A stretch of 60,171 nucleotides of DNA, counting the filler, from Dugesia japonica (taxonomy: Eukaryota), in the NCBI GenBank assembly GCA_001938525.1. It is 5 parts of 5 records of this genome, joined end to end, with 100 filler letters (N's around TTAATTAATTAA, not from the genome) between each part and the next. Parts side by side here need not be neighbours in the genome. Positions count along the whole stretch, not along the records: positions 19,467 to 31,174 come from MQRL01535806.1; 4 more parts are not named here. One strand, written 5' to 3'. The position numbers and the translations under genes are program-made. Under the pieces are notes generated by a model. The model did not search any database. It was not told where the DNA came from and saw only the letters and a list, made by a program, of their open reading frames with translations. Each line of letters starts with the position of its first letter. The stretch's first letter is position 1. This document shows positions 15,133 to 52,967 of this stretch, piece by piece.

Positions 15133-16530
15133 TAAGGTGACCAAATCTTTTACAGGGAAAAGGATGACACGGATAAATGGAAAAGATATCTATCTTAAAT
15201 AAAATAGTTTTTTTATTCATTCCAATAATAACACATTAATATAATAAAATCATTTGTAACATTTTATTTTTAACTTATGCCCATATGGCTATTAGTTACT
15301 ATTTTAAATGGGTAGTTTTCATTTGAATGAATATTTTGTGTCACTGTACGATTCTCTATAAACACGTTTTAATATCAGAACAAAAAATATCATCCATATT
15401 AAATTTTCCCACAAAACATCATTTAAAGTATCAGTATTCAATATTAAGCTCTCACTCGTCCAAATATAAAAAAATTCTTCCAGGACAACACAGTGCAAAT
15501 TGAACAAGCTCAAAAGACTTTTATAGTGAACAATGCTTATTTTTAAAGAGGGTAAATATCTTTATCTAACTTTTATCAATTTCCCATATTATTAATGTTT
15601 CTGTATTTAAATATAAGTTTAGTCTTCTAAATTCTTCAAAAAAACAACTTACATCTATTTTAATTTCCGGAATTTTTGTAAATAAATACTCATTAGAAGA
15701 TTTAATATCCGTCCGATTTATTTGCAACGAAGTCTAAAAGCACCATGAAAACGGATATTTTCTGGGATGTTTGTTTCAAACCATTCCTCGATATATTGAA
15801 AACATGTCTGATAAAATTTCAGTGCTTTCCCAACAAACCTTTTTATTATAACTGGAAATGGTTCCTCTAAATCAATTAATTTTCTTTTTATAATCAAAGG
15901 AATCAATCTTTTTGCAAATCAAGATGTATATTGAAGGATTAAATTATTCAAAATAAGACTTACCTCTTTGGCTGAAATGTGTTAACCTTCAATCATCTGA
16001 ATTGTTTTATTGAGGCTAAAAAATGAACAAAGAGTATTAAATAAATACAGAACACACTCCAAAGCAGGTGTGGGAGTAAAACATCTAACTTTTGAATACA
16101 CTAAAATATTTTTGAGATCAACGTTTTCTTCTTCACAAAATTGTTTAAAGTTTTTAGACAAACGGTGAAATGACTAAAATATAAATAAATCTTGATTATT
16201 ATTACTTTCACATCAATTGACATAGGTGACAACGCTGTGCTGATTACATTTGAGAAAAATATGTGAATTACAACCCTTTCTCAGTATTTTCATTTTAAGT
16301 AAATCCTATAATTTTACATAAACCCTATTCAAATCCCTTCACTTTCGGCCACTAAAGTTTTTGTTTGTATTATCGCCAGGTAGAGCAACAACTTTGGATT
16401 TTAAATTGTTTTCATTTATTACTCTGTATAAACTATTTGACAAAATTTCCACAGTGCCACCCCCAAAAGATATACCAAATGAAATTAACACTTGAATTCC
16501 TTTGAAAACATTAAAATATATTAAATATAA
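15133..16530 (-). pseudogene. Decayed hAT transposase element (Blackjack/hAT5-like)
   Basis: Terminus TAAGGTGACCAAAT. Minus-strand remnants GDNTNKNF, GCNSH, SKVR, FYQTCFQYIEEWF, ELVQFALCCPG with stops and frameshifts. Confidence 0.7.
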
Positions 16531-16594
16531 TTTAGATAAAACTGTTAAAACTTTTATAAATGCTAGGGTTTTTAAGACTTCCCTGAATATTTTA

Positions 16595-16783
16595 TTACTG
16601 TTGGGTTTTTAGGATTTGGCACTTTAAAATGTTAGCTTCAAATTTACCGANNNNNNNNNNNNNNNNNNNNNNNNNNNNNNNNNNNNNNNNNNNNNNNNNN
16701 NNNNNNNNNNNNNNNNNNNNNNNNNNCATGCCCCTTTCTTTCCACGGGTTCAGCGCGACTTTGTGGTATCGCGTCTTACTCAT
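16595..16783 (-). CDS. Small ORF G (MSKTRYHKVALNPWKERGM..), partly in N gap
   Basis: CAG acceptor 5 nt before ATG; stop overlaps AATAAA (16591-16596). Confidence 0.4.
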   Translation of the reverse strand: MSKTRYHKVALNPWKERGMXXXXXXXXXXXXXXXXXXXXXXXXXXGKFEANILKCQILKTQQ

Positions 16784-16924
16784 AAAACCTGTGAACCCGG
16801 TCTGTACGAATCTAACATGCTCAGTAAAAATAAATCTAGTAGATGCAAATAAATAAGTAGTACTATAATACAAATATCACTCCAACCAACACTCAATAAC
16901 ATTTATTTTTACAGTATACTCCGT

Positions 16925-17194
16925 TTATTCGGCATCCAAATCGATCGTCGACTCCGTAATTGTACTTGTTTCCTCTGGGGATCGATAGTGGAGCATCAAT
17001 GTCCGCAGAGATACAAACATGGAGCTTTCTTTGTCTGCGTACGTCTTGATGACGTAGGCCATCAATCGATTCACGTGCTGCAGGGACAGTTCCTTCTCCT
17101 TGATTTGATTATATTTGGCTGTTGATTTCAAGACCTGCCCCTTCAACCTCAAGATTTCATTTTTTAACTCTCGACGCTCCTCTTTCCATCTTTG
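16925..17194 (-). CDS. Small coiled-coil ORF F (3' exon; 5' part in N gap, probable first exon with ATG at 17433)
   Basis: Open frame ..ELKNEILRLKGQVLKSTAKYNQIKEKEL..; GC-richer than flanks; stop overlaps AATAAA. Confidence 0.5.
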   Translation of the reverse strand, partial: QRWKEERRELKNEILRLKGQVLKSTAKYNQIKEKELSLQHVNRLMAYVIKTYADKESSMFVSLRTLMLHYRSPEETSTITESTIDLDAE

Positions 17195-17554
17195 NNNNNN
17201 NNNNNNNNNNNNNNNNNNNNNNNNNNNNNNNNNNNNNNNNNNNNNNNNNNNNNNNNNNNNNNNNNNNNNNNNNNNNNNNNNNNNNNNNNTAATAAAGTTT
17301 AAATGAACTAAAGTAATACTCCAGTAAAGGAACCCAAACTTAGTTAACGTTAACCGATTGCTATTAGAATAAAAGAAAATTGACTCTGTGTTAGGCTTAC
17401 ACCAAAAAAAAATTTAGATTTGACACCATGCATTTCTATCTACTACTGCCTCTGCAGATTTCACAATGAATAACCATTGAGTGACATACATATCACTTAG
17501 AACTCTTTAATAAAAAATTGAAAAGCAAGACCAAAATCCCGTAATACTCAACAT

Positions 17555-17997
17555 TTATTGATCCTTGGTCGCAAGCGACTCCACCTTTACGACGACCAAC
17601 TGCTGGACACCGCTCAACTCCTGGGTGCTTTCAGGTGATAGTGCCAAAACCTGATCTTCGAGTTGACCCAATAATAAATTATGCTCCATCTGCTGCCGAA
17701 CCAAGTTTTCCGTACTTTCTCTAATTGCTTGTCTCTCTTGCCGGAGTCTATCATTTTCTTGTTGACATAACAGCAACTTCGATTGGGTATTCCTTAGCTG
17801 TTGTTTTAGGTCCCGGAATTTCGTAACCAATTGGCCGCCTTTGTAGAGTAACTCAGTTTTTCCTTTTTCGTATACCGCTTTCTGTTCNNNNNNNNNNNNN
17901 NNNNNNNNNNNNNNNNNNNNNNNNNNNNNNNNNNNNNNNNNNNNNNNNCGTCATTCGTAAGCACAAACGGGATGTGCGGTTTAAAATAGGCTGTCAT
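17555..17997 (-). CDS. Small coiled-coil ORF E (frameshift near 17830 and N gap)
   Basis: CAG-ATT-ATG start; heptad-like LKQQLRNTQSKLLLCQQENDRLRQERQ; stop overlaps AATAAA. Confidence 0.5.
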
Positions 17998-19366
17998 AAT
18001 CTGTATAATAAAAAATATTTAATTATAATTTTAAGCAATAATTGAAAAATGAGATAAATAATTAGCTATAGTTTCTTCAGCCTATCAGTCCTGATTCCTT
18101 GCTCCGAACATGCGAAACAGAGAAGATGACGATTTAAAACCATGATCTTTCCTTGTTCTCATGTTTATAGAACTCTCACAAGATGTACTATCAAAAAAAA
18201 TTCTTTTCCGACGACACTGTAGGGAAAAAATTAAATTATAAATTTTCACAAAATTGGTTACTTCTATGACTATAAAAATAAATGAGTTTCAATTGAAATC
18301 ACGTTTTTAATTTAGGCTTTATAAAATACTGAGATCAGTTCAATACACTCTTATATTTAAATGATAAAAAAAATAAAAGATAACAAGTGAAAATCACAAC
18401 TACAAAACTATAATATTTCAAGCCAATTCCGCATTAACGACNNGGTTCCGCCTGCTACAACGCATTATTTAACAAACAACAAAGGTATTAATCGAGCTCT
18501 CATAAATCATTTAACTTCTGGCGACATTTTCTATCAGGTACAATTCTGCAAATCTATCGTTCTTCCGTAATTTCAACTTCAATAATTTTATACTGTTAAT
18601 CGATTGTCACCATTCTGATGTTCTAATTTCCCCATCAAATTCCCTGGTTCTATTCCATTTTTGAATTTCAACTCTCGGCCATCCTAATATTTCGGCCACA
18701 ATTTCTCCATCTAATTTTCTTGATACTAGCAGTATGACCGTTTCGAGGGCACTCGGCATCACATGTAGAAAAAGAAAAAAATTAAGGTTTTTATTTTGGA
18801 AATTTGATAAAATAATAATAAAAAAAATATTGCTTACTAATCGAATTTATTTCAATTCTCCTTTTCCCGAAANNNNNNNNNNNNNNNNNNNNNNNNNNNN
18901 NNNNNNNNNNNNNNNNNNNNNNNNNNNNNNNNNNNNNNAAAAAATAAAATTTCGTTAAGTAAAATATTTTTTTTCTTTTAAAAATTTTAAGAAAACTTCT
19001 GTCTAATTCCCTAGTGCAAACGAGTTTTATTACTCGTTTACACCCCAACTTGGCATGATTCATTTGCTCGCCAATCGTCTTCGTTTTTCGTCCAATCCGG
19101 GTTTTTGATTGGTTGTTGTCTTCGTCTTCATTGTTGTGTTGTGTNNNNNNNNNNNNNNNNNNNNNNNNNNNNNNNNNNNNNNNNNNNNNNNNNNNNNNNN
19201 NNNNNNNNNNNNNGGATTGTTACTAAGAGAAAGTCCTTGTCTAGCAGGAAATGATTCAGCTAATCTGCTGATAATTTTCGGTTTATTTTTCATCAGCTAG
19301 ACAAGGACAGATGACTGGACCAGCCATAATTATAACATTAATTAATATCAAATGGATAATATCCAT

Positions 19367-19466
19367 NNNNNNNNNNNNNNNNNNNNNNNNNNNNNNNNNN
19401 NNNNNNNNNNTTAATTAATTAANNNNNNNNNNNNNNNNNNNNNNNNNNNNNNNNNNNNNNNNNNNN
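19367..19466. other. Artificial assembly spacer (44N + TTAATTAATTAA + 44N)
   Basis: Identical 100-bp structure also at 31175-31274, 40124-40223 and 49666-49765; the 12-mer has stops in all six frames. Confidence 0.9.
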
Positions 19467-19469
19467 AAA

Positions 19470-20060
19470 GAATTTCCGTAAAAATTCATCCCAAATTAAC
19501 CAATCTTGAGAAAATAATTGACCGAATCACCCAAAAATTAGTTAAACCGATCTCACCGAGGAAATATTTGACCGAATTCACCTAAACCTGTCAAAAACTC
19601 AATCACCCAAAAATTACCCAAACCGACCAATCGCGAGGAAATATTTGACCAAATTCACCGAGACCAATGAAAAATCAACCTTATTCCACCTCACCGAGAA
19701 AGTTTCAGACCAAATTCATCAGAACCAATCAAAATCCAACCAAATAAACCCAAACTTCTTAAACACGAAGAATTATTCAAGCAATTTTACCTGAACCAGT
19801 CAAAAATTGACCTCATTCAACCTCACCGAGGAAATATTGGACAAAATTCACTTGAACCAATCAAAAATCAACCGCGATCGACCTCACCGAATAAATTCCC
19901 AACTAAATACATAGGAAAAAAGTAACAGCACATTATTGCTTAAAAAGCCTAAAAAATTTCCCCAACTAAATACACAGGGAAAACGTAACACCACATTGCC
20001 GTCTAATAAGCCTAAAAAATTTTCCCAACTAAATACACAGGAAAAAAGTAACACCAGTTA
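19470..20060. repeat. Two adjacent degenerate minisatellite arrays (~60-76 bp unit, then ~62 bp unit x3)
   Basis: Recurrent CTCACCGAGGAAATATTTGACCAAATTCAC, then CCCAACTAAATACACAGGAAAAAAGTAACAC. Confidence 0.8.
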
Positions 20061-20159
20061 TACCTATTACGTAAAATTTCACCGATAAAATTAATCTCAT
20101 GACAGTGATAATATAGACATTGAAATCGTTATTTTAACTATTCGGGTGATGTACGGTAG

Positions 20160-20345
20160 TCAAATTAGCATTAACATTAACCTCATCATTAGCGTAATTA
20201 ATGTCATTATTATTATCTGCCCTTTCATCGTTATCGGTATTATGTTTATTACGATCATTATTCACCTGATTATATTCATATTAATAATGTGGTTATTATG
20301 AGCATCATTCTTATTAGTAATATTATGGGTACTATTATCATTTTT

Positions 20346-20380
<35 letters not shown>

Positions 20381-21060
20381 NNNNNNNNNNNNNNNNNNNN
20401 NNNNNNNNNNNNNNNNNNNNNNNNNNNNNNNNNNNNNNNNNNNNNNNNNNNNNNNNNNNNNNNNNNNNNNNNNNNNNNNNNNNNNNNNNNNNNNNNNNTA
20501 TTATTATTATTAATATAATTATTATTATTATTATCCTGATTATCAGTACTAATTTTAGTAATATTATCATTATTGCTATCATGATTATTATTATTAATAC
20601 TACCTGTATTATGGTTATTAATATTGCTAAAATTACTATCAAATCATTATTATTCTAATGTTATATAAATGTTCTTATTATTTTATCATTGCTTTAATGG
20701 ATGCCATTATTATTACTGTCAGTTTTTTTCTTGCCTTGTTATTATCACTATGGTCGCTACTGCTAGATGATTTATTATGGGATTTAGAATTCTCAGTTAT
20801 TATCATTAAAAATAATATAGTTATTCTCGGCAATACTGTATAATGACAATGAATATCCATACTATCTCACACATAATTATGCAGTTTAATACTATTATTA
20901 TCGTTACTTCTGCTGAGGACGTCATTAGAATTACCACTCCTGGGATAATGTTAAAGTAGGTGTTATGCCCGTATCAAGTTATTAAGTATCCATTACAACT
21001 AGTTAACATGATTCTAGTTAATTATAAATCGTACTCCACGATGTTCCATTCTAGTTATAA
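20160..21060. repeat. Degenerate (ATT/ATC)n low-complexity tract
   Basis: Pure (ATT)n core flanked by decayed triplets. Confidence 0.8.
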
Positions 21061-21087
21061 TAAACTTTTATAATTTAGTTCAGGTAG

Positions 21088-21275
21088 ATGTCTAGCATTC
21101 TGAAGGACACATCGAGCTTCATATGTCGGGAAAGAGAGCAATCACGGCGAAACCAGTTAATCGGTCATATCCTCTTTCATAATCTTGTTCTCTCCCGGAT
21201 GAACTAGACCTGAGATGTTTTAGGGTATTATAAATACTTCCTTGGGAGGTCGATATAGACAATGGCTCTTGTTAA
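21088..21275 (+). pseudogene. Disrupted paralog A1 of ORF 23537-23734
   Basis: MSSILKDTSSFICREREQSRRNQLIGHILFHNLVLS/[1-nt deletion]DELDLRCFRVL*ILPWEVDID aligns with A2. Confidence 0.75.
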
Positions 21276-21406
21276 TGAATGGCTAAATAAATTTTGGTGT
21301 CATCTAAATTCAGTGTTGCTTATTTATTTGATTTTGTCTTATAGACTTATTGCTTTCCGTATAAATGTTCTTGATTTTGTTAACAATGTTTTTAATTTCA
21401 GTTGAT

Positions 21407-21655
21407 ATGGAATTTATATTGGAAAGAGTCATCGACCGACGAACGCGTCGCATAATCTTTCGACGGCATAGAAATCCTTACAATCAAGACGCGGGCATTC
21501 TTTCTGATCAATCTAATCTACCTCCCGTGGAGGCTATGGTAGCCGGATCCAGAATTTTGGAGAGTGGCAAAACTATCAGGAATGGAATGGTGCATAACCA
21601 TGCAACCCCTTTCAGCAGTGCAAGCTTTTATTACGAACTTGCTCTGGGGTGTTAG
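21407..21655 (+). CDS. Arg-rich small protein B1 (82 aa)
   Basis: TTTCAG acceptor 5 nt before ATG; ERVIDRRTRRIIFRRHRNP is identical in paralog B2. Confidence 0.6.
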   Translation: MEFILERVIDRRTRRIIFRRHRNPYNQDAGILSDQSNLPPVEAMVAGSRILESGKTIRNGMVHNHATPFSSASFYYELALGC

Positions 21656-21962
21656 AGAACCCAAGGGTGCCGAAAAATCGTAGAACGTAGATCCAATAGC
21701 TAATACGGAGACTGGCCAGTAATTGTCAATACTAATTATGATTTAACTGTCAATTGAATAAATAGTTGTCTCAAGTTTTATAAGCAATCCGTTTCATTCA
21801 ACTTTATTTTTTTTAGTTCATTTATTTGTCGTTGTAACGAGAAATATTTCTTTTATTTCCATAATTAGTAAGGTTTGCAGTGTTGTATGCGAGTAGATGC
21901 TTTACGTACTTCGTCATTTTATTGTTGTCTGCATAGATTTCATTTAATATCCATTATTCTAG

Positions 21963-22299
21963 TGCATTCCTCTTTGAATCGCGCAGCTGGCCCGACTAAG
22001 AAAATCCGCGAGTCCAGTGAAGAATTAGAAATGACCTGTGACGTAAACAAGCTTGCTAAACGTCTCTAGGAAGCTGATATTGCGAACGCCAATAGTAAGG
22101 TGAGGTGATATAAAAAGAAATGCATGGCGTTCAAATCCGAAGCCGAGGCATCACACCAACAAGAGAGTATGGAAGGTTCAAATAGAGTCCTTCATTGAAA
22201 TTATCCGGTCCTAACAAGACCAAGAAACTGGTCCAGGACATCCTGAAATTAAAGACTGCGATGCTCCTCGAGCCTTTAATGGTCGATAAGCGACCTTAA
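21963..22299 (+). pseudogene. Decayed coiled-coil ORF C
   Basis: HSSLNRAAGPTKKIRESSEELEMTCDVNKLAKRL*EADIAN.. then TKKLVQDILKLKTAMLLEPL..* after a frameshift; AATAAA at 22317. Confidence 0.45.
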
Positions 22300-22423
22300 T
22301 GTTTATTGGTTTCATAAATAAATGATTCTTTTTGTGTAAATAAATTCTTCTTTCCGACTTATTCACTTAGCTAATTTTCATCTATTTTAAGAAAATAACT
22401 TATTTAATGATATATCTTATTTA

Positions 22424-22690
22424 GTGCCACAAATTAGATTTCCGACGATTCTACGCCGGTGTCATCGATTAATCACTAATTTGTTACTAGAACGTCACCT
22501 CAAACGACAAACTGAACGTGCTCTACTCAAACATCTCGCGCAACAGAATAGACTCATAAAAAGACTAGACCTCATCGTTAAGAAACAGGCAGATCTAGCC
22601 GAGCAGACTAAACAGCTCCTTCAAAAAAAAATCGATTTTCTGAAGATATATATTGCAAATTTATCTCGTCAGCTGGTAACAATGGAATGA
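22424..22690 (+). CDS. Small coiled-coil ORF D
   Basis: 88-codon open frame directly after a TTTAG acceptor; heptad pattern LAQQNRLIKRLDLIVKKQADLAEQTKQLLQKKI. Confidence 0.5.
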   Translation: MPQIRFPTILRRCHRLITNLLLERHLKRQTERALLKHLAQQNRLIKRLDLIVKKQADLAEQTKQLLQKKIDFLKIYIANLSRQLVTME

Positions 22691-23536
22691 CCAGGACGAC
22701 GAAACGTAGTTTAATTTTTTAGATGACAATCCCACACAGTGGTTAGACCCAGGTGCTATGGATCTCATGTAGTATGTATTAAAATATAAATTAGTTTTAA
22801 CGATTTATTAATTGATTATGAAATAAGGAAAGTAAAGAACCCGAAACAAAGATGTAAGAGTGAGCACCTCTCGTAAAGGTCGAAGGTCAACCGCTTTGCA
22901 TCGAAGATCTAACTTAGGAGCGTTAGATTAAATTCTTGAAAGGGATCTACTGAGAACCGTTTTTTTTTGAAAAAGTCAAAAACCAATAGGAAACAAGAAC
23001 CAAAAAATAAAAATAGTCAACCAACAGGAAAGTAGTCGGGTTGTATGAGAAAATGCTATAAACGCTTCCGAAAAAGTAGCCAAAATATCAACAATTTATC
23101 ATCAAATTCAAGTCTTAAAGGACTATTGACTAATTAGAAATCAATTCTTAGTTACTGTTTAAAAATTAGACTAACTGAAGTACTAACGTAGTCATTCCAA
23201 AGTGAAACCACCGAATTATTTGAAACTTCTAAAGTAAAGATATCGTAGTTTAACCAGATATAATTTTATTTAAAGGAAAAGGAAAAAGGAATATACTGTG
23301 ATGATCTGATGTAAGATTATTTTAAATTAATATTAATTTCATTTAAGTTAATTTTTCTTCTGTTAAGAACTAAATAATTATAAATATCGAAATTACAAAA
23401 AGAAATAGTAATTTAATTTAATTAAATCTGAAATCAAAAAAAAATAAAATCTTATAAGTGCATATGTTTTTTATTGAAATCATTTAAATTCAATTAAACA
23501 AGTTGCAAAAATAAACTATTTAAATCATTCAGGCAC

Positions 23537-23734
23537 ATGGCTACAATCCTGAGGGAGATTTTGAACCTAATTCGTCGAGAAAGGGAACAAGCCCGTCGTA
23601 AGCAATTGATTGGTCACCTCCTATTCCCTCATCTTGTTCTCTCCAAGGATGAAATGGATCTAAGGTGTTTCAGGGGATTATATCCCCTCCCTTGGGAGGC
23701 TGACTTGGACGTTAAACCTATCTATGAACCATAA
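23537..23734 (+). CDS. Small protein A2 (65 aa), unknown function
   Basis: CAG 4 nt before ATG; AATAAA immediately after stop; paralog A1 differs at many synonymous sites. Confidence 0.65.
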   Translation: MATILREILNLIRREREQARRKQLIGHLLFPHLVLSKDEMDLRCFRGLYPLPWEADLDVKPIYEP

Positions 23735-23840
23735 AATAAAATTCCGTGTTGACTATGCTCGTTGTTATTGCTTAACTAACTTTGTTTTTATATTTATAAA
23801 TGTCGAATTTTGTTGACGGTAATTTTAATTTCAGTCTTAA

Positions 23841-23969
23841 ATGGAATCGATATGGGAGAGGGTAATCGACCGCAGGACTCGCCGCATAATTTTCCGGCGA
23901 CATAGGAATCCGCAAAAAGTTTTAAAACTCAACATAGCCGCCATTTTGATTTTTGAAAATTCAATATAG
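23841..23969 (+). CDS. Arg-rich micropeptide B2 (42 aa; missed by the ORF track)
   Basis: MESIWERVIDRRTRRIIFRRHRNPQKVLKLNIAAILIFENSI*; TTTCAG acceptor 6 nt upstream. Confidence 0.55.
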   Translation: MESIWERVIDRRTRRIIFRRHRNPQKVLKLNIAAILIFENSI

Positions 23970-24549
23970 CTACTATTTTTATTTTTTTCTTAAATGTAAT
24001 AGGTATGCAACTCAGTTGCAACTCAGATGCAAAACACATACACTAAAAATTACTTGCCTATGAATTTTAAACTGTCTCATACCTTGCAAAATATAAAGTC
24101 TGTCTCATCACATGCTAAATATAGAGGCTCCAATGTTAAATATAGTGGCTCTCCATTAAAAATGTCAAGACTGCTCATACCATGCAAAATACCAAGACTC
24201 TCCGATATCTTGTATTAATTTCTTGTAATAATATCTTAAAAAATATCAAGACTGCCCAATATCCTGAATTAATATCTTTAAAAATATCAAGATTTCCCAA
24301 CTTATGCAAAATATAGAAACTCTGCATGCAAAATATTAAGACTGCCCCATCTCTTACATAAAAAAGTAATTTAATTAAATTAAATTTAATTTAATTATAA
24401 TAAAAAGATTTCCCCCCTTTGCAATGAAAATTTTCCAACCAAAATAATTTTTTTTGAATTTCCCGCCAAAAGTATTTTTTTTGAATTTCCCGCCAAAAAG
24501 ATTTTTTGAATTTACCACAAAAAACATTTTTTTAAATTTCTCGTCAAAT
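23937..24549. promoter_or_regulatory. YY1-like and tandem E2F-like motifs plus ATCAAGACTGCCC-type short repeats
   Basis: GCCGCCATTTTG at 23937-23948; GAATTTCCCGCCAAAA at 24456 and 24483; degenerate copies at 24508 and 24534. Confidence 0.45.
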
Positions 24550-25530
24550 AGTTTTCAAAATTATCAAGACTTTCCTCTTCTCCGTTCGAAAATCTTATAA
24601 AACAACACTTCCCGATCAAAATACCAAAAAAAAATAACCAAAAATACATCAAATACTAAAAAATGATATTACTTTCATTAAATTCATCAAATTAAGCAAT
24701 ATACAGCATTTTTTAAGAAATTAATTATTTCAAAAATTTATGATGTCATAACCAATCGACAGAAAAATTTCAAATAAATCTTATAAAATCCGATAATTAA
24801 TTCTCTTTCTACACATACCAACCTCCACCTCACGAAAAAAATTTTAACACACTTATACTACTTACAAAATAAACCAATCAAAATCAAGACCTTAAAATAA
24901 AAAATCAAAGCACATTCGACAACCAACTTCGTCACCATCATATTACATCTCCAACAAGCCATCAACCAACAAATTCCATCAACAACATAAAAACCTACAA
25001 CACTCACAAAAACCACCCACGATAACACATACGACTGTGTAGGACGAACCATCCATCCAAGCTCATAAGTCCTTTAGACAATATATAGACCAAATTTTTG
25101 TCCAACAATAAATAAATCTTCAAAATCCCAAAAAATTATCTCTAAGATCTCCAGCTACTCCTCCTCGTTTTTTCCCGTCTTTTACACACACAATTTGACC
25201 CACTTTTTAATAACCAACTTAACAACCGAAACATACACAAAATTTAAATTTTAAAAATACACACACACCTTCAGGATAAAAAAACCTGATAAGGTAAAAA
25301 AAAAATTTGATCCGATCAAAGAATTTTTGATCCCAAAAATCTTTAAAAAAAATATCACAAAAATCATGATTGAAAAACGCAGTTCAAGCGTATTGTGCTT
25401 CCGAGCTCCCCCGGGAAGGAGGGGGGCTCGCAATAATTGCACAAATTGTGCCGGTGTGCCACTATCTATCTACTTTTATTATTCTTTTTAATAGAGAAAG
25501 TTATTCTGATTCAAAAGGCGCGTTTATTAA

Positions 25531-25902
25531 ATGAGGAGAATCAAAAAAAATATGATAGGGGAATATAAAGGATATACAAATTATGTAAAATTAAATAATG
25601 AAGAATTATATCACGATCAAAAAGTTAATTTAACTTTCTTGAATAATCCTCCTAAATCTTATTCTAATTTATTATATATCGAAAAGAAAGGAAATCAAAT
25701 TATTATTAATCAAAATAATCGTCAAAATGAACAATACATTACCATAAAAAAAGGTTTTGAATTTGGTAAACTAGTTATAAGAGATAAAAATACGAGCGGA
25801 TATATTTATGAGTGTTTATCTTATGAAGCTAGCGACAAAACGAATAACAATGACATATATTTAGACAATTTTTTGCCCTTTATACTACACAAACAAGAGT
25901 AG
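25531..25902 (+). CDS. Intronless 123-aa ORF, virus/Maverick-like accessory protein
   Basis: AAATG start, open frame, tightly packed with same-strand neighbours. Confidence 0.45.
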   Translation: MRRIKKNMIGEYKGYTNYVKLNNEELYHDQKVNLTFLNNPPKSYSNLLYIEKKGNQIIINQNNRQNEQYITIKKGFEFGKLVIRDKNTSGYIYECLSYEASDKTNNNDIYLDNFLPFILHKQE

Positions 25903-25994
25903 CTCGTGATGTTAATAAAAATAATAATGAGCCAAATGAAACAATTATAAAATCTAAGTTGTATTAAAAGCATAAAATCTTAATTTTATTAGAA

Positions 25995-26617
25995 ATGGAG
26001 AAAGAATATGATCGTATTTATCCTGATATAAATGAGGAAGATAAAAATTTAGATCAACCAGTAAGAACGCCATATTTAGCTGATTATAAGTCAAAACCTA
26101 AAACATTAAGAATTAAAGATTTTGAAAATGATTTAACATTCTTAACACATAAAATAAATCATTATTATAAATCATATAGAAGATGGAAAATCTTTGATAC
26201 AGGTGTAAGATATACTGATATTTTAATAGGATGTTTATTTGGTGCCGCAGGTATAATAATAACCGTTTTATCTACAAATGGTATAGTTATTTAACTTTAC
26301 CTGTTATTATACTTGGTACATTTCCTTTAACAAATTCAATTATTCATGGTCTATTAAACATAGCTTTAATTAAACGAAGAAAGAAAAAGTATAATGATTT
26401 AATTAAAGAATTAGAAACTAGTAAAAATAAATTATTTCTATATCATCAGAGATGCTTACATTATAATATATTAATAGATGAAGAAATAAGTACTAGTAAA
26501 ACAATTGTTAGTGAAATCAAAAGTAAAATATTAAAGATTAAAAAAGACAGTATAAATGAAGATAATAAAGAAACAGAAAAAGATAATACTTTTTTATTAA
26601 CAAAGCTAAAAAAATAG
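25995..26617 (+). pseudogene. Frameshifted two-TM-helix protein of the kind recurrent in Maverick/Polinton-like elements
   Basis: IYP..LRIKDFE..YYKSYRRW, TM1 (ILIGCLFGAAGIIITVLSTNG), frameshift ~26290, TM2 (LPVIILGTFPLTNSII), RRKKKY..SKNKL..IDEEI helical C-terminus. Family assignment is from memory. Confidence 0.5.
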
Positions 26618-27070
26618 AATCTTAAATAAAACAATCTGCACCAAAAGTACGAAAGAAAATGAATAAAAAATAGATTATAATTGTTTAAATTGCATTAAAT
26701 TAAAAATTAAATATAAAAATTAAAAAATGAGTTATAAGAGCAATATTAATATCTTTTTAAAAGAATTGGTATTAACCAAGTATTAGAAAATAAAATTATA
26801 GAAGAATATAATAAAATTCCACAACATAATAAAAGACTGCAATCTAATTTCATAGCCACTTTATATTTAAATTTCTTTCATTCTAGTGAGGTTTAGGAAC
26901 TGTGTTACTTCTTTAGTCAAAGGACAAGAAAATAAAAACTTGATCGAAATATTAAAACATTATAATGTATATAATAATAATTTATTTACTTGGAATGATC
27001 CTCGTGCAAATTTATATAATCGATGGGTGTAAGATGTGTAATTATTCAATTAATATTATTTTAATAAAAA

Positions 27071-27588
27071 ATGGCAAATAAATTTATCGAGTGTATTTCT
27101 AAAGATAAAGATTTGAAATTAAAATTACAAGAAGATGTAAATATGTATAATTCATTAGCTATTGGTGGACAAGGTGAAGCAGGAAGAACATTTAAAATAA
27201 GAGCTAAACAATTTTAACAGTGTGCTGATATAATGGGTGGAACAATATATAATCTCGCTTCTGAAAAGCATGAATTAGCTAATCAAAATAAACAATTAAT
27301 GAAAATAATCATTTAACTAATCAATTAAAAGAGCACAATAATTATGATGTAAAAGATATTCAAAGAATTACATAAGAATATGCATCGTCAAAAATGAATG
27401 AAAATCAAAATGAAGTCATATTAACTGAATTGAGCAGATATAAGAACATTTTACGAAACCACTTTAAGCAGTGAATATTTTATTATCAAGATTTGTTAAA
27501 TGTCATTAGTACAAAAGGAGAAGTTTCAGCAGAGTTAAAAGAAAATTTTTATATCATTAAACACTTTACTGGAGGAAAACAAATTTGA
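27071..27588 (+). pseudogene. Decayed intronless ORF (~170 codons)
   Basis: MANKFIECISKDKDLKLKLQEDVNMYNSLAIGGQGEAGRTFKIRAKQF*QCADIMGG.. to ..HFTGGKQI*, with 3 stops and a frameshift. Confidence 0.45.
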
Positions 27589-27640
27589 AATAGAGTAATT
27601 TTATATATTTGTTTAGCTTTTAATAACCTGATAATCTGAG

Positions 27641-27765
27641 TGACATCCCTGAAAAGAAATCCAGTGGAAATCCAAGAGAAGTGAAATTGGTTGTAATTTT
27701 GTTAAAAATTTATCGAAACAATAAAGAATGCAATCAATAATTAAGTCCAACAATTAATTTATTTT
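27641..27765 (+). mobile_element. Degenerate copy of the HHR-bearing repeat
   Basis: Decayed core CTGAAAA..GAAA at 27649 and 3' part CAATAATTAAGTCCAACAATTA. Confidence 0.4.
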
Positions 27766-28452
27766 GTCGAATCTCGCAGGTTCGAGCTGTCCCACGCAAT
27801 CAATAAACTTGAGCAGTTCTGCTCACACTAATACTTTTCTTTTTCCATCTTGGAAATTCCCTCTACACGTTCTCATTTTATTACAACTTCTCCATCCACA
27901 ACTTCTTCATTTTTCCGTGTTCTCGATTCTGCTCTTCTTCCTCCTTTCCTGTTGTGATCCTTCTCTATCTGATCTTTCTCTTCTTCCTCATTCAAATATC
28001 TTCATTTCGACAGCAGATAATCTAGTTTGTTTCTCATGTGCTTCGTTTCAATTTTCTTCTCTCTCTCCAGTCGTTCTTCATCGATATAATATTGATTGTC
28101 TCGCCAAAAATTTCGAGATTCCAGCTTTCATTTTCTTGGAAATAAGAAAAAGGTTTCTAAAATATTTAAAATATTAAAATAAAATTCTTTCAAAATTTGA
28201 AAAAGTTTTTATTTTTTATTAATTTTTAATAAATGTTTTAATTAAAAAAATAATAGAATTAATTATAAAGGATTATTTTGGATAAGAATTGTATAATTAA
28301 AAAATGTTTCAAATAAATAAATAAAATAATTTTAATTTTAATAATAACCAATAGAATCTCTGGTTTATGTACACAAAACATCAATATATCCAATAGGAAT
28401 AGTGCAGATATAATAACAAATTATTTAAACAGTTTATTTAATGAAATCTTTA

Positions 28453-30393
28453 TCATTCTCCTCCTTCTCCTCCAGATAGTAATCTTCTCCTCATTTCCAG
28501 ACACGAATGGAATTGTAGAGGTAAATTTATTTGACCTACAGAACGAGAATGGTCAAACATGTTTTCTAAATATTGCATTGAATGGTTATAATTGGAAATT
28601 AATGACTCCAAAGATTCCTCATCTGTACTATTTGAGTGATCAATTTCATAACGAATACTGAAAATCAAGCAATTAATATTGTATATCATGTCAAATAATC
28701 CTCCAAATAAATAATTTAAATTATATATATAATTTAAATAATGACATTTTATCTTAGATATTTGATCATCATAATCATCATCATCATCAGAATTGTCATT
28801 ATCATCATCAACAAAATTGTCATCATCATCATCATCACCACCAGAATTGTCATCATCACCATCATCAAAATTGTCATCATCATCATTTAAATAATGACAT
28901 TTAATCTTAGATATTTGATCATCATAATCATCATCAGAATTGTCATTATCATCATCAACAAAATTGTCATCATCATCATCATCATCAGAATTGCCATCAT
29001 CAAATATCATAATTTTGTGATATAGTATATATTTTGAATAAAATTCAAAAAAAGCCTTTATATTAACAAATTCATGAAAATGTTTTCCTAATGATTCAAT
29101 TAGATCAAGTTTTACAAATATTGATTGGATATTTTGATGTTTTTTCGTTATTTCATTATTGATGAAGCATGTTTTATCTGACTGCCAAATAACTGTCAGA
29201 TTTATTTGTTCCATCATTTCCATCAAATCTGTAAAATTAGTTATTTCCAATAATTCTTCAATCAATAAACTTGATATTTGCAAACAATTTTCCACAAGGC
29301 AATGTAAAATATTGTTATAATTAGATTTGAAATAATCAATAGTTGTTGGTGTTTCACATTGTATCTTGTTGTTTGTGAATTGATCAGTTTGAATAATAAT
29401 TTGTAAAGTAGTTAATAATAATTCTCCGTTATGAAATGGACAACTTCCATAAATTATGCTAAACATCTGGATGCAATCGATACAAATTTTATGATTACAA
29501 TTGGGGAATTTTGCATAGCAAATATTATTATCTTCACAAGTAACAAAATAATTATCTCCACATATTAAACACATTTCTTCTGTTACCAAATGAAAATTAG
29601 GTTCGATTTGTTCGTATAATTTATTATTATATCGTATAAGAGAAATAATTTCGGTTTTAATTTGTTTCTTCATTTCACACATAGCATGGATATGGTTCAT
29701 TACTGTAGCAAGATGTCTTTGTTTGATATTTGCAATTTCTGGTTTACTTGACAATTCATCTCGTAATTGGTCGCAAGATCTAAGCAAATGCTTTATTAAT
29801 TTTGAGAAATCTTCAAATACGGATTTGGTAAAACAATAAATGTAATTTAATTCGTTGGTTTGAATTTCTTTGTCTTTCAAATAGATTTCTTCAAATATAA
29901 TTTGCTTTTTAGATTTCTCAGTGTAAAAATAACATTCATCATAAATTACTGTTAATTGTGCAATAATTGCTATAAAATCGAACGATAAGCTACGATCATT
30001 TGATGATGACAAATTTAACATTTCTAATAAATTACTTAGAATTATATTGATTTCCTCCACATCTTTAATAAATTTAGAAAAATATTGTGATAAATTCTTT
30101 TCGATCTCTTTCTTGATAAATTCTGAATTATTTATTATTTCTTTTCTAATTACACTGTTCTGATAATGATGTATACTTTTTTTTATTTCTGGTTGATTTT
30201 TTCTGAGAGTTGTAACAGTTCTACATTCAATATTATCAAATGGACATTTAACTGTTTCATTAAAAACGATTTCATTAGTACATTCCTCGCAAATAGAATA
30301 TCTACAATTTCCTAATTTAAATGAGGTTTCATTGCTAAATTCAGCATAGCAAATCAAACAAACTTCTTCAGTAAAATTACTTTCTAAATTCAT
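28453..30393 (-). CDS. Intronless protein with two RING-type zinc fingers, helical/coiled-coil regions and an Asp-rich repeat (putative E3 ligase, 646 aa)
   Basis: CLIC..CRYSICEEC..CPFD and CLIC..CNHKICIDC..CPFH. First ATG at 30393 (the ORF track starts at an upstream TTG, 30432). Confidence 0.8.
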   Translation of the reverse strand: MNLESNFTEEVCLICYAEFSNETSFKLGNCRYSICEECTNEIVFNETVKCPFDNIECRTVTTLRKNQPEIKKSIHHYQNSVIRKEIINNSEFIKKEIEKNLSQYFSKFIKDVEEINIILSNLLEMLNLSSSNDRSLSFDFIAIIAQLTVIYDECYFYTEKSKKQIIFEEIYLKDKEIQTNELNYIYCFTKSVFEDFSKLIKHLLRSCDQLRDELSSKPEIANIKQRHLATVMNHIHAMCEMKKQIKTEIISLIRYNNKLYEQIEPNFHLVTEEMCLICGDNYFVTCEDNNICYAKFPNCNHKICIDCIQMFSIIYGSCPFHNGELLLTTLQIIIQTDQFTNNKIQCETPTTIDYFKSNYNNILHCLVENCLQISSLLIEELLEITNFTDLMEMMEQINLTVIWQSDKTCFINNEITKKHQNIQSIFVKLDLIESLGKHFHEFVNIKAFFEFYSKYILYHKIMIFDDGNSDDDDDDDNFVDDDNDNSDDDYDDQISKIKCHYLNDDDDNFDDGDDDNSGGDDDDDDNFVDDDNDNSDDDDDYDDQISKIKCHYLNYIYNLNYLFGGLFDMIYNINCLIFSIRYEIDHSNSTDEESLESLISNYNHSMQYLENMFDHSRSVGQINLPLQFHSCLEMRRRLLSGGEGGE

Positions 30394-30754
30394 TATTGAT
30401 AAATATTGAATAATAATTGATTTATCAAACAAATTTTATTTGATTTCATTATTTCAAATTTTTCCAAAATGCATTTAATGAATAATAATTATTGAAATAA
30501 TTATTTAAACTATAAAATATTAAAATACAAAATTGTTTTATCAAATTAAAACTTTTAACTTGAAAATTGATTAAAATAATAATTATATGAATATTCCAGT
30601 GTTGTATGTTTGTTTTTTTTCCATGTTTGTTTGTATTTTTGTGCGGGATGCTCAATTTTAATCAAAAAATTTAAAATATTGTGATTTTTTATTGTAGCTT
30701 TTAAATTTTAAATTATTATATTAAAAACCTAGTGTTGTGTGTTTGTTTGTTTTA

Positions 30755-30982
30755 CAGGGTTTTTCATTATATTTCATTCTGGTTTTCAAAATATTTAACT
30801 ATTCTTTAAATTGTACAAAATGCAAATGTATTTGAACAAATGTAAATAATTGAACAATTTTTCAACAAGCATAGTGAAATATTTTGAACAGATTATTAAA
30901 TATATTGAAAAGATTATTAAACTTTTTTGAAAAGATTATTAAATATTTTGAAAACCAGAGTGAAATATAATGAAAAACCATG
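30755..30982. mobile_element. Tc1/mariner-type MITE
   Basis: ~44-bp TIRs CAGGGTTTTTCATTATATTTCATTCTGGTTTTCAAAATATTTAA; TA TSD. Confidence 0.85.
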
Positions 30983-31321
30983 TATTTGAAAATTTATGAA
31001 AGTTTAAAAAATTCGTAAGATTTAATGAAAAACTCTCAGAAAATGGAGAAACTTCAATGATGATAATTTTAAATATTTTAATGAAAATTTTAAATCTTTC
31101 AATGAATTTAATAATTACAATTATTGTGAGAATAATTGTTGGACTTAACCATTGATCGGATTTGAGATTTCATTNNNNNNNNNNNNNNNNNNNNNNNNNN
31201 NNNNNNNNNNNNNNNNNNTTAATTAATTAANNNNNNNNNNNNNNNNNNNNNNNNNNNNNNNNNNNNNNNNNNNNTCAATATTTATACGCTAAAAAAATTT
31301 ATTTGCGTTTATTGTATTATA

Positions 31322-40032: not shown

Positions 40033-41279
40033 AAGGAAATTCTTTTGTAAATTTTAATCATAAATAAATTTAGTTAAAAATTAAAATTTTATTTTAAAGT
40101 TTTTTTTTTGATTAAAATTTATGNNNNNNNNNNNNNNNNNNNNNNNNNNNNNNNNNNNNNNNNNNNNTTAATTAATTAANNNNNNNNNNNNNNNNNNNNN
40201 NNNNNNNNNNNNNNNNNNNNNNNCGACACCCGTCCTTGTTATTTAATTTTTGATTTNNNNNNNNNNNNNNNNNNNNNNNNNNNNNNNNNNNNNNNNNNNN
40301 NNNNNNNNNNNNNNNNNNNNNNNNNNNNNNNNNNNNNNNNNNNNNNNNNNNNNNNNNNNNNNNNNNNNNNNNNNNNNNNNNNNNNNNNNNNNNNNNNNNN
40401 NNNNNNNNNNNNNNNNNNNNNNNNNNNNNNNNNNNNNNNNNNNNNNNNNNNNNNNNNNNNNNNNNNNNNNNNNNNNNNNNNNNNNNNNNTTTGGGCCATA
40501 TTATATGATATCTGCAGTACATCACCAATTTTCTTAACAGTAAGGCTAATTTCATAAGCATCAGTGTTACCAATTCAATATTTTTCTTTCTTGAATCACT
40601 TTTTGAAGTTTGGAAATTAATTTCTCTGATTTTTTTGTACTCTTTACAAATTGTTATGAAGCGACGTACACTTATGCGATCATCTGAACCTGCTTCTTCT
40701 GTAATTTTATCAATTCTTGTCACTAATCATACGAATCTGCGTAAAGTTTCAATTAGAATAAATAACCGTGCTTTTTGTGGCTTCGCTGAACTTTTTTATA
40801 AACATCGAAAACAAATACAAAATGTTTAAATCGATTTGAATATTAAAACAAGATACAATAATGAAAGTTTAGTGCTAGCTTATATTCATACAACACAATA
40901 ATATCTGAAATTCAAAACTACGCCGTTTTTCCGATATAGCATATAATTATGTTTTTATTTTCATGATTTTTTAAAATTTTATCAATAAAGTGCATATGAG
41001 AACTTCTGGGACACATTTATGTGTGTTCATTGGATACACGTTAAATGTGTGAGTATGTGATTTTAGACCACTTTCATAACTTTTCATTAAAGAAAATTAT
41101 TACAAGCATTCAAATTATGTCACAGAATTTTAATTTCTGTTAAATGTGAATTTTCATCACGCACAAGTGTAAACCTTTTGTACCGATAATTATCGTGTTA
41201 ATCTTTGAATGAGAAAGAGGAAATCTTATTTTTAAATTCTTATACAGAATTCATAATTGTGAAGTAAAAATGAAACATA

Positions 41280-49460: not shown

Positions 49461-51284
49461 CATGAATCTAAGTTAAAATTATCCAGTAAACAATACCGCG
49501 TGGAGGGAGTGAGTCAGTATCTAAGTCAGATACGGCCATAGAAATAATGTTGTTTTGTAGGAGTCTGAACCATAGACCAAGATTTACAATTCATTTTTCT
49601 TTAGTCATGCCAGCCGAATTGTGGCGTACCCTTCATTGGATAAAACGACGTCGGCAAACCACCCGNNNNNNNNNNNNNNNNNNNNNNNNNNNNNNNNNNN
49701 NNNNNNNNNTTAATTAATTAANNNNNNNNNNNNNNNNNNNNNNNNNNNNNNNNNNNNNNNNNNNNAAAAAAATAAGAAAGTTTCGAAAAAAACAATTCGG
49801 CCAAAAAAATTGCAGAGAATGAAAAATTATTAATCCTCATAGTTCAAAAAATCATAAATAAATTTTCTGAGAGACGAAGAAATTGTTGGGAGAAAATAAG
49901 AGAAAAAATCAAAAACTGAATCTNNNNNNNNNNNNNNNNNNNNNNNNNNNNNNNNNNNNNNNNNNNNNNNNNNNNNNNNNNNNNNNNNNNNNNNNNNNNN
50001 NNNNNNNNNNNNNNNNNNNNNNNNNNNNNNNNNNNNNNNNNNNNNNNNNNNNNNNNNNNNNNNNNNNNNNNNNNNNNNNNNNNNNNNNNNNNNNNNNNNN
50101 NNNNNNNNNNNNNNNNNNNNNNNNNNNTTTCTTGTAAAATTAATTCCCTTTTATAAACTATTTTAATTTGCATGATTTATTTTATTTAATAAATTAATTG
50201 TTTATTTTATTTTCAATTAATTTATTAATTAGATTGCTATTCTTCGTTTCCAAGCTAAAATTTTATTTATGTATTCCTTTCCATAAAGAATTCATTTAAT
50301 TTATTTCTTGTTTTTAATTATTAATTGAATTTTCTTTATTCTTCGTAATGAATTATTCGATCCAGTTATTATTTGCTTTCGTAGTCTGTCAGTGTCTTTC
50401 TCTGCCAATTTATTCCTGTATTTTTCTTTATTTAATAGCAATATTTTCTATTTCCAAAATTGTTTTTCGTTTCTTAGTTTTTTCATTACTANNNNNNNNN
50501 NNNNNNNNNNNNNNNNNNNNNNNNNNNNNNNNNNNNNNNNNNNNNNNNNNNNNNNNNNNNNNNNNNNNNNNNNNNNNNNNNNNNNNNNNNNNNNNNNNNN
50601 NNNNNNNNNNNNNNNNNNNNNNNNNNNNNNNNNNNNNNNNNNNNNNNNNNNNNNNNNNNNNNNNNNNNNNNNNNNNNNNNNNNNNNNNNNNAAAAATTCA
50701 CGAATTGATGAAATGATACATATAATACACGGTTCTATGAAAATTGCGTACAAGAAAATTGCGCACAATATGAAATTATTATATGAATTTTTATAAAAAT
50801 TAATATATGAATTGAATGTTCATTCTTAAATAATTCATTTTTGAAAAAAAACAAAGTAAAGAAAGAACAAATAAAATAATTGTAATATTAATGCTTCCAA
50901 TTTAAATTCGCACAGGAAAATGGTGAAAACACTACATACTGCCTAATATTTCCCCTCTATATTGAAAATCGACAACTCTATCACTAAAATTAAAAGTTGA
51001 ACAATTGATGAAATTCCTGAATGAATGTTTAGACCAATCTAGATTTAAAAAAACTATAATGCCCAACAACTTCTTAGAACTCCAACTACACTTGCATATT
51101 TTTATTTTTTAAGAAAAAATCACATTCTTCTATTCTACATATCACACTTTTTATTCAATAAAATTTTATTTTTTTATTAATAAATTTGATTCATTAATTA
51201 CATTTCAACTTTTTAATTAAATTTAAATGATAACTGTTTAAAAAATACCTTTTTCTCGAAGTTTTGAAGAAAAGTTCCTAAATT

Positions 51285-51947: not shown

Positions 51948-52967
51948 CTATGATTCTCCATTCAATTTCCCAACTTTCTTATCACGAAACACAGCATAAC
52001 AACAAGCACACAAACTCGAATAATGACAGAACACCGCCAGACACAAAGAGCACACATATCCAACCGACACCAAAGTTCCATGACAGAAACACGAAGCTCT
52101 GAAGTCGATATCGATATTATTCGAATTGTTGATCATCGTCAAGAATTGTCGATCGGTAACATCAGTCAAATAGAGAGTGATGAAGTATTGCAGTAAATCT
52201 CGTATTTTATTGATTGTCAAATAAATCCCATTTGTCATATCTACAGTTTGTCGCAAAATATTCGCTTTGTCAAACTCAAATTCATTAGACAACGGATGAG
52301 AATTATTGTTGTGCATCATCATTGCCGGATTCGAATCGTCTGGGTTTAATATACACACGTCGATACAAATGTTATGTTTCTGTGCTGTGAACACTCCATT
52401 CATCATCGACATGAAACTCGCAGAACTATCCGGTAATCCAGTGCGCACTACGATAAATCTACCGCAAAATAATTCCAACTGATTATTATGAGTTTTGTGA
52501 ATTTTCAGAATTCTTTTGTAATAACAAAGCGATTTAATAAATCCTCCGGAGAGATTTACATAATTAATGAGAGATGCATTACTTTCATTGATTAGTTTGA
52601 AAATATTTTCTCGGATTTTTATTTCAGCAAATTGGATATAGCGATTTTTCGATGAACTGATAGAAATAGGAACATCACATATCATATCAGTGGTGTAGAT
52701 GTATTCGCTTTTCTCTGGGACAATTCCAATTATAGCTAATTCTTTTTTACTGGAAAATGTGAGAAACATACTAGAAAATGCAACAATTGTATCGATATAC
52801 GTCGAAAGAGTATGATCTGAGTGTTTTAACCACCAAGATGGAGTTAAATCCAATATTATACATAATAGTTCGCTTTTAGGATAATTTAACTGAGCACTAC
52901 TTCCAGAAACTCCTAAGAAATTATCGTACTTAACTACTTCAGAATTGGAAATTGATTGTTTATACAT
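51948..52967 (-). CDS. GTF2H3: General transcription factor IIH subunit 3 (p34/Tfb4)
   Basis: LLCIILDLTPSWW, SFMSMMNGVFTAQK..IDVC, ILRQTVDMTNGIY, DFRASCFCHGTLVSVGYVCSLCLAVFC..CACC: vWA-like Tfb4 domain plus C-terminal zinc finger. Confidence 0.95.
   Translation of the reverse strand: MYKQSISNSEVVKYDNFLGVSGSSAQLNYPKSELLCIILDLTPSWWLKHSDHTLSTYIDTIVAFSSMFLTFSSKKELAIIGIVPEKSEYIYTTDMICDVPISISSSKNRYIQFAEIKIRENIFKLINESNASLINYVNLSGGFIKSLCYYKRILKIHKTHNNQLELFCGRFIVVRTGLPDSSASFMSMMNGVFTAQKHNICIDVCILNPDDSNPAMMMHNNNSHPLSNEFEFDKANILRQTVDMTNGIYLTINKIRDLLQYFITLYLTDVTDRQFLTMINNSNNIDIDFRASCFCHGTLVSVGYVCSLCLAVFCHYSSLCACCYAVFRDKKVGKLNGES

Follow-up and report, generated by a model that had tools for sequence, protein, structure and literature searches.

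The analysed window, by which the whole stretch of 60,171 nucleotides joined from five parts of the Dugesia japonica assembly GCA_001938525.1 is meant, contains a row of small coding-like cassettes on its plus strand, within the part taken from MQRL01535806.1 (positions 19,467 to 31,174). The cassettes follow one another in the order A1-B1-C-D-E-A2-B2, with a guanine-cytosine (GC) content of 0.35–0.53 in the coding-like stretches and 0.12–0.29 in the spacers, and the gene studied here, B, carries a 19-codon arginine-rich motif in both of its copies, at 21422–21478 (B1) and 23856–23912 (B2). The features of the row are as follows, where ORF denotes an open reading frame and pN/pS the ratio of the proportions of non-synonymous (pN) and synonymous (pS) differences.

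21088–21263, plus strand: cassette A1, a small ORF after an acceptor-like TTCAG, broken; pN/pS about 0.27 against A2
21264–21406, plus strand: A-B spacer, copy 1, with AATAAA after A, a branch-like TTAAC, a T-rich tract, AG at 21400–21401 and a 5-base leader
21407–21683, plus strand: gene B1, with its ATG at 21407 and a frame supported to codon 45 by variants, aligned over residues 1–43 to a homologue (P0002, below), broken
21422–21478, plus strand: motif in B1, covering most of a predicted beta-hairpin
21963–22299, plus strand: cassette C, a decayed, coiled-coil-like ORF (by eye) with TG directly after an acceptor-like AG
22425–22770, plus strand: cassette D, an 87-codon basic helical ORF whose first bases, TG, adjoin an acceptor-like AG; an acidic stretch comes next, in a different frame
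22818–23129, plus strand: cassette E, a decayed coding-like stretch with several stops, the weakest member of the row; GC 0.35 against 0.12–0.21 in the flanks
23537–23734, plus strand: cassette A2, an intact 65-codon ORF after TTCAG, with AATAAA directly past the stop
23735–23840, plus strand: A-B spacer, copy 2, with AATAAA, a branch-like TTGAC, a T-rich tract, AG at 23833–23834 and a 6-base leader
23841–23912, plus strand: gene B2, first 24 codons only, cut after the motif; 43% identity to B1 in the next 100 bases
23913–24600, no strand assigned: the repeat truncating B2, very abundant, with a 32-base tandem unit, further tandem units and E2F/CHR-like repeats (CHR, cell cycle genes homology region); right border approximate

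Both copies of the motif are translated into the same peptide, ERVIDRRTRRIIFRRHRNP, as an earlier note on this DNA had claimed, and a recount agrees with its figure of 13 of the 19 codons differing synonymously and none non-synonymously, the remaining six codons being identical and 14 of the 57 bases changed. The Nei-Gojobori method gave a pS of 0.91 and a pN of 0 (Fisher P 2e-12), and fewer than two amino-acid changes were obtained in 0 of 200,000 trials when 14 substitutions were placed at random on the motif. When the six frames of B1 and B2 were compared over 24 codons from the ATG, the plus frame of the motif was the lowest with a pN/pS of 0.05, four other frames ranged from 1.9 to 5.9, and the antisense frame that shares its third positions with the motif frame, at 0.12 and with 4 replacements, was rejected as the selected one. 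The silent-change signal in B is real and strong. The silent excess claimed for A1 and A2 was also recovered, with pN/pS values of 0.27 (35 codons, P 1e-5) and 0.26 (21 codons, P 8e-4) in the two blocks flanking a one-base indel. The duplicated unit, 21059–21477 against 23510–23911 with 68% identity, spans A, the spacer and the beginning of B, and the two A-B spacers, with 59% identity, retain the AATAAA, branch, T-rich and AG signals in both copies. The near-saturated silent sites mark A1-B1 and A2-B2 as old relatives, which may be two pairs within one element or may stem from two elements.

High copy numbers were observed for B. Contigs over 21330–21720 (B1 and its flanks) numbered 418, 427 and 401 in three runs and 45 in a fourth, and those of run X1 were distributed by likeness to the B1 region as 13 (99+%), 68 (95–99%), 142 (90–95%) and 195 (under 90%). 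Contig depth was mostly 3–20 per listed piece, with one contig per run reaching 386–557 in the three deeper runs. B2 is also repeated, with a summed contig depth of 139 against 4–6 over A2, and at 80% likeness B outnumbers the other cassettes in run X8 (depth 98–186 against 4–8 over A1), which is to be read as a rough guide. The deepest contig over 21407–21544 represents a young, uniform B subfamily about 82% like B1, with dissimilar upstream DNA and possibly an early stop. A2 exhibits conserved DLRCFR and LPWE segments, and at 80% likeness it has far fewer copies than B.

The earlier note had proposed selection across additional copies as a check of its claim, and this came out in its favour. 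Of the 108 variant rows the best-supported 40 were considered, and among the 26 that fall in codons 1–45 the silent ones number 16, where 28% would be expected (P 3e-4). Within codons 25–45, 10 of the 16 listed variants are silent (P 0.0045), none of the 26 replaces an arginine, and the Trp-giving base of codon 5, as in B2, is present at 98% of the X1 depth; two of the listed variants give a stop when taken singly. The conserved frame of B, judged from these variants, extends well past the motif, to at least residue 43–45, and the bounded 19-residue unit that had been proposed does not survive, its border being an artefact because an abundant repeat cuts B2 there and the variants of other copies are predominantly silent as far as codon 45. 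Past the last Pro codon of the motif the identity of B2 to B1 drops to the 43% listed above, and the 42-codon ORF of B2 to 23969 continues into unrelated repeat DNA. Across this junction the summed contig depth rises about 80-fold, from 139 (23786–23896) to 11,051 (23897–24007), loose ends lie at 23920 in 26 contigs, and other copies of the repeat extend upstream into dissimilar sequence. Within this repeat, at 24432–24555, repeats of about 25–27 bases carry TTTCCCGCC beside TTTGAA, which we take to be an E2F/CHR-like pair, and 23913–24600 as a whole is presumably the terminal part of a distinct Polinton-like element.

The window copies B1, B2 and A1 are not working genes. A1 contains a one-base indel near 21196 and an in-frame stop at 21231–21233, comparison of B1 with other copies reveals a one-base indel near 21543 and a stretch missing near 21590–21613, and both C and E contain stops. 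In three RNA runs (5.2 billion letters, 6–25% of each run), 0 reads were found over the B1 bins or over 23786–23896 at 80% likeness, and silencing, or tissue-limited or rare expression, could mask B reads in these runs. Intact copies with poly(A) RNA, as would mark an expressed host gene, were thus not found, with B1, B2, A1, C and E all broken and 0 B reads. A third-position excess in the changes shared by dead copies has been described as the mark of selection on active lineages (PMC1626080), and because B1, B2 and A1 are broken and no RNA read covers B, selection likely acted on active element lineages rather than on the window copies. The claim of tiny ORFs that were translated and functional is therefore upheld for a translated frame under purifying selection and given up for A1, B1 and B2 themselves. 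A silent-change excess between two repeat copies reports past selection on the element and not a working host micro-peptide, and B displays the pattern of many dispersed copies in which the coding sequence is constrained from lineage to lineage and decays in the individual copy.

When residues 1–46 of B1 were searched against 1.84 billion representative proteins, two hits were obtained. The fly repeat protein P0001 (E 1.1e-4) owes its match to Arg-rich repeats and was dismissed as compositional. P0002 is a 94-residue unnamed protein from a 512-base ENA contig (E 1.7e-4), which aligns with B1 without gaps from the Met to residue 43, a score reached by 0 of 200,000 shuffles, and judged by this homologue gene B would be about 90–100 codons long. 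Its identity to B1 is higher in residues 23–43 (13 of 21) than in residues 6–22 (6 of 17), and it retains W5, E6, D10, R15, I17, F18, R20, N23 and P24 together with the downstream NPYNxDAGIxxDxSNxP. In the motif, where arginine makes up 8 of the 19 residues with a net charge of +6 and all eight are identical in B1 and B2, a density seen in motifs of the Tat/Rev type, P0002 retains two of the eight arginines and has two more as lysine, giving a net charge of +1 against +6. Arginine richness is therefore specific to the B1/B2 family. No homologue was found when B1 was compared with longer proteins, the search with alignment A3 recovered P0002 alone among 6 candidates, and scans of IMG/VR and JGI gave no relative. 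A degenerate DNA pattern for NPYNxDAGI matched 13 loci, with the upstream hairpin pattern in 0 of the 13, and was taken as chance.

The first 22 residues of B probably form a beta-hairpin. AlphaFold2 predicts strands at residues 3–10 and 15–22 and no third strand, with predicted local distance difference test (pLDDT) scores of 86 and 91 over residues 1–20, and the same two strands were predicted for P0002 at a pLDDT of about 53. Given a four-residue turn, the cross-strand pairs would be D10-R15, E6-R19 and W5-R20, the register following from the strand limits, and a single hydrophobic face would be made up of W5, I9, I16 and F18. This predicted pairing would account for the homologue keeping the paired and face positions, and of the four arginines missing there three (R11, R12 and R14) are placed in the turn; the basic residues that are retained would then be structural. 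Neither Pfam (B1, B2 or P0002, E up to 10) nor a PDB sequence search returned a match, and fold searches gave nothing at E 0.001, while none of 48,161 chains reached Z 2, which is weak evidence for so short a model. The 45-residue module is the most conserved part of the array and is without a family, structure or annotation match.

Cassettes A, B, C and D are each preceded by a T-rich tract and YAG. In A and B the ATG lies 4–6 bases past the AG, and in C and D a TG stands directly after the AG, in frame with the ORF; a branch-like YTRAC before the AG of B and an AATAAA after A were observed in both copies, and in cassette C an AATAAA lies 18 bases past its end. The leader of B between AG and ATG has 5 bases in B1, 6 bases with an in-frame stop in B2 and a one-base insertion in other copies, and B is taken to start at its own ATG because the leader length varies between copies and the B2 leader holds that stop. 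The possibility that A and B are exons of one protein was rejected, as A ends without a common donor, AATAAA comes after A in both copies, the leader phases differ and the B2 leader contains an in-frame stop. A scan for acceptor-led, GC-rich open frames returned 12 in the window, eight of them within 16700–23920, of which six are A1, B1, C, D, A2 and B2. Searches of the cassettes gave no homologue of A2 among proteins, no significant Pfam hit for any cassette and 0 of 9 proteins matched in PHROGs.

These observations likely describe a conserved, unnamed accessory micro-gene family of a mobile element and not a working 19-residue host peptide, and B is very probably an accessory gene of such an element. 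As to what B does, we lean slightly towards the reading that B1 and B2 are broken start copies of a multi-copy element gene whose product combines a hairpin with an Arg turn that grips nucleic acid, and which likely regulates expression or packaging of the element. An active element would transcribe a leader and splice it to one of several acceptors, each RNA would stop at the next poly(A) signal (AATAAA) and so yield one micro-protein (A, B, C, D or E), and B would begin at its own AUG, whereas in C and D the leader would supply the first base of the AUG. The B hairpin would fold against the NPYNxDAGI segment or a partner and expose the basic turn, which in the B1/B2 lineage may act as a nucleic-acid contact or a nuclear signal. 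Silent changes would accumulate while the element lineages are active, and copies would decay once landed.

The nucleic-acid-binding or nuclear-targeting role that the earlier note had proposed for the motif is plausible in the B1/B2 lineage, and on the sequence evidence we give a nucleic-acid or nuclear role of B an even chance. It is favoured because all eight arginines survive near-saturating silent change, and because there are precedents in the bovine immunodeficiency virus (BIV) Tat protein, which binds TAR RNA in a beta-turn shape, and in Rev, whose arginine-rich motif (ARM) is both an RNA binder and a nuclear signal (PMC9062085). The lentiviral Tat and Rev ARMs resemble the motif as short Arg-rich segments within small accessory proteins (PMC9062085), and they differ from B in that a hydrophobic hairpin, apparently able to fold by itself, with a conserved non-basic tail is predicted for B, that its arginine content is not retained in the distant homologue, and that neither sequence similarity nor a target RNA is known.

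Among planarian elements, accessory ORFs are described for Burro (PMC6431247). The Burro and GYPSM1 giant Gypsy-like long terminal repeat (LTR) retrotransposons are alike in being abundant mobile DNA of an AT-rich genome, probably in the same animal group, with regulatory-type accessory ORFs and non-coding tandem repeats (PMC6431247), and over 70% A/T is given for Schmidtea (PMC11410931). They are unlike in that their accessory parts consist of large domains of known type (MATH, BIR, BCL2-like, ankyrin) within or beside the polyprotein, and the available text of PMC6431247 mentions no row of acceptor-led micro-ORFs, the elements being compared by description and not by sequence. In errantivirus env the start codon is completed by splicing, and in the springer subclade of Drosophila the downstream ORF comes likewise from a spliced subgenomic RNA with such a start (bioRxiv 10.1101/2023.08.03.551782); there the leader gives AU for one env gene, whereas C and D here would need only A, five or more small ORFs are present, an ATG already stands in B, and spliced RNA was not observed. 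A wider and rather doubtful extension would be that a planarian mobile element has a complex-retrovirus-like programme of five or more micro-genes, alternatively spliced from a single leader, with their own poly(A) sites and some splice-made starts, including B as a Tat/Rev-like hairpin regulator from a new protein family, whose age would account for a distant homologue in a different sample and for its duplication within the element. Should B regulate the RNA or the nuclear traffic of its element, retroviral Tat/Rev would have an invertebrate counterpart. Silencing by PIWI-interacting RNA (piRNA) in planarians is reported for LTR elements and Polintons (PMC8532177), and if B regulates its element it would offer a handle on the persistence of large elements in stem-cell-rich animals under piRNA control. 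No description of such a micro-gene array was found in the literature searched; supplements, Repbase and the curated planarian repeat library were outside that search and might contain the element unannotated. No match to a B-like gene was found, in the terms searched, in the available text of the adintovirus paper (PMC8502044) or of the errantivirus survey (PMC13524379).

Several observations weigh against the regulator reading. In addition to the missing RNA reads over B, no splice joint or transcript was seen in the three RNA runs, no gag, pol, transposase or polymerase gene linked to the row was found in the window (nor any pPolB, integrase or capsid gene among the window ORFs scanned), and there were 0 candidates for LTR-type TGT...ACA ends with a target duplication in 15500–28500, where the right end of the row is cut by another repeat. 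The criteria of the acceptor scan were chosen after the region was seen, and it misses minus-strand cassettes; AATAAA, a common word in AT-rich DNA, follows 4 of the 6 assessable cassettes (A1, B1, C and A2, and not D or E). The variant tests draw on the best-supported part of the variant rows, and codons 6–24 taken alone are borderline, with 5 of 8 listed variants silent (P 0.052). The codon 6 variant, singly a stop, accounts for about 35% of the depth at that codon and is carried by 2 contigs, apparently including the deepest one, and given this variant B may not be made by its most uniform subfamily. The homologue P0002 is a lone sequence lacking context, the fold model rests on a three-sequence alignment with a predicted template modelling score (pTM) of 0.33, and the register of the pairs was derived from strand limits. 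As the motif of the homologue has a net charge of only +1, nucleic-acid binding is not the function of the protein that is conserved deeply.

Because the distant homologue is not basic, the main rival keeps the same gene and element and makes the hairpin a protein-binding module, which would either resemble half a WW domain or add a strand to its partner and would serve as a decoy for a host regulator, with the arginines needed for structure or for nuclear import alone; we consider it possible and clearly less probable than the regulator reading. Deep conservation does fall on W5, E6, D10, R15, I17, F18, R20 and NPYNxDAGIxxDxSNxP rather than on the arginines, and the spacing W-E-x3-D-x2-S/T-x-R-x2-F is like what we take to be the pattern of the first two strands of a WW domain (presumably Pfam PF00397), with a Trp-Glu start, an Asp before the turn, an Arg after it and an aromatic residue in strand 2. 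As a WW domain proper B was rejected, failing both the profile match and the requirement of two Trp and three strands: there is one Trp in residues 1–43 of B, two strands are predicted, the Tyr-Tyr/Phe-x-Asn signature is lacking, and nothing matched in Pfam, the PDB or the fold searches. The lack of any such match, of a second Trp and of a third strand in the model also counts against a protein-binding module in general, as does the retention of all eight arginines between B1 and B2 at near-saturated silent divergence, set against the precedent that host-meddling domains are present in Burro elements (PMC6431247).

Two further explanations are both less likely than either the regulator reading or the protein-binding module. 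It is quite improbable that the row is a host micro-gene family in the manner of a trans-spliced operon, each AATAAA being followed after about 100 bases by an acceptor and an ATG, with the copies seen here as pseudogenes. The roughly 110 bases from AATAAA to AG and the T-rich tract, retained in both A-B copies, would suit it, and leader trans-splicing occurs in flatworms as it does in nematodes; the hundreds of diverged contigs per run with one very uniform subfamily, the 0 B reads in three RNA runs at 80% likeness and the position of the row amid other repeats would not, and C and D have no ATG of their own and would be set out of frame by the flatworm spliced leader, which we assume to end in AUG. 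Just as improbable is a basic core or DNA-condensing protein of a Polinton or adintovirus, belonging to the same element as the small genes at 25531–27600. The adjoining DNA, which we take to be Polinton-like, the compact genes with AATAAA and the net charge of +6 point that way, but B2 is interrupted in mid-gene by the Polinton-like repeat, whose other copies have unlike sequence upstream, the depth steps about 80-fold at the junction, and no relative was found in IMG/VR. The P0002 motif, with its net of +1, shows no family-wide basic charge, the viral-core-protein analogy of the earlier note is unlikely, and the words 'arginine' and 'protamine' occur 0 times in the available text of the adintovirus paper (PMC8502044).

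The surroundings of the row are AT-rich, with a GC of 18–33% in 2-kb steps and plentiful ATT-type repeats. A second row of small decayed ORFs was observed on the minus strand at 16727–19360, oriented away from the A–E row, which includes an ORF resembling a helix-turn-helix protein (ATG 18759, by eye), a TG-start ORF after an acceptor-like AG (about 18216) and two coiled-coil-like ORFs whose stops overlap AATAAA (17555 and 16925). No convincing protein similarity was found between the plus- and minus-strand rows (best E 0.012). The stretch at 19480–20060, between the rows, contains tandem repeats (77/132 and 63 bases) that include CCAAT-like words, and on its minus strand four repeat units, lying upstream of the minus-strand row, carry a donor-like TCG|GTGAG. 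At 25531–27600 compact, AT-rich small ORFs are present, of which 25995–26617 is, on our assumption, a frame-shifted Polinton gene of the PW type, with no confirmation from Pfam, PHROGs or IMG/VR; the Polinton label for 26297–26614 was likewise not confirmed in IMG/VR.

Farther along, one 660-codon open frame on the minus strand at 28453–30435 exhibits RING-like zinc fingers (Pfam E 2.6e-4, below the cut-off) and an Asp-rich duplicated stretch. The positions 19367–19466, 31175–31274, 40124–40223 and 49666–49765 share a common layout of two 44-base N runs flanking 12 bases, the first of them centred on an AT palindrome. An uninterrupted 339-codon TFIIH p34/Tfb4 gene lies on the minus strand at 51948–52967 (Pfam E 2e-53), and its closest solved relatives are the 308- and 284-residue chains of General transcription factor IIH subunit 3, ahead of Tfb4. 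Fragments resembling Gypsy-type reverse transcriptase, integrase-end and RNase H sequences (by eye) were observed at 55876–57448 and 59541–59912.

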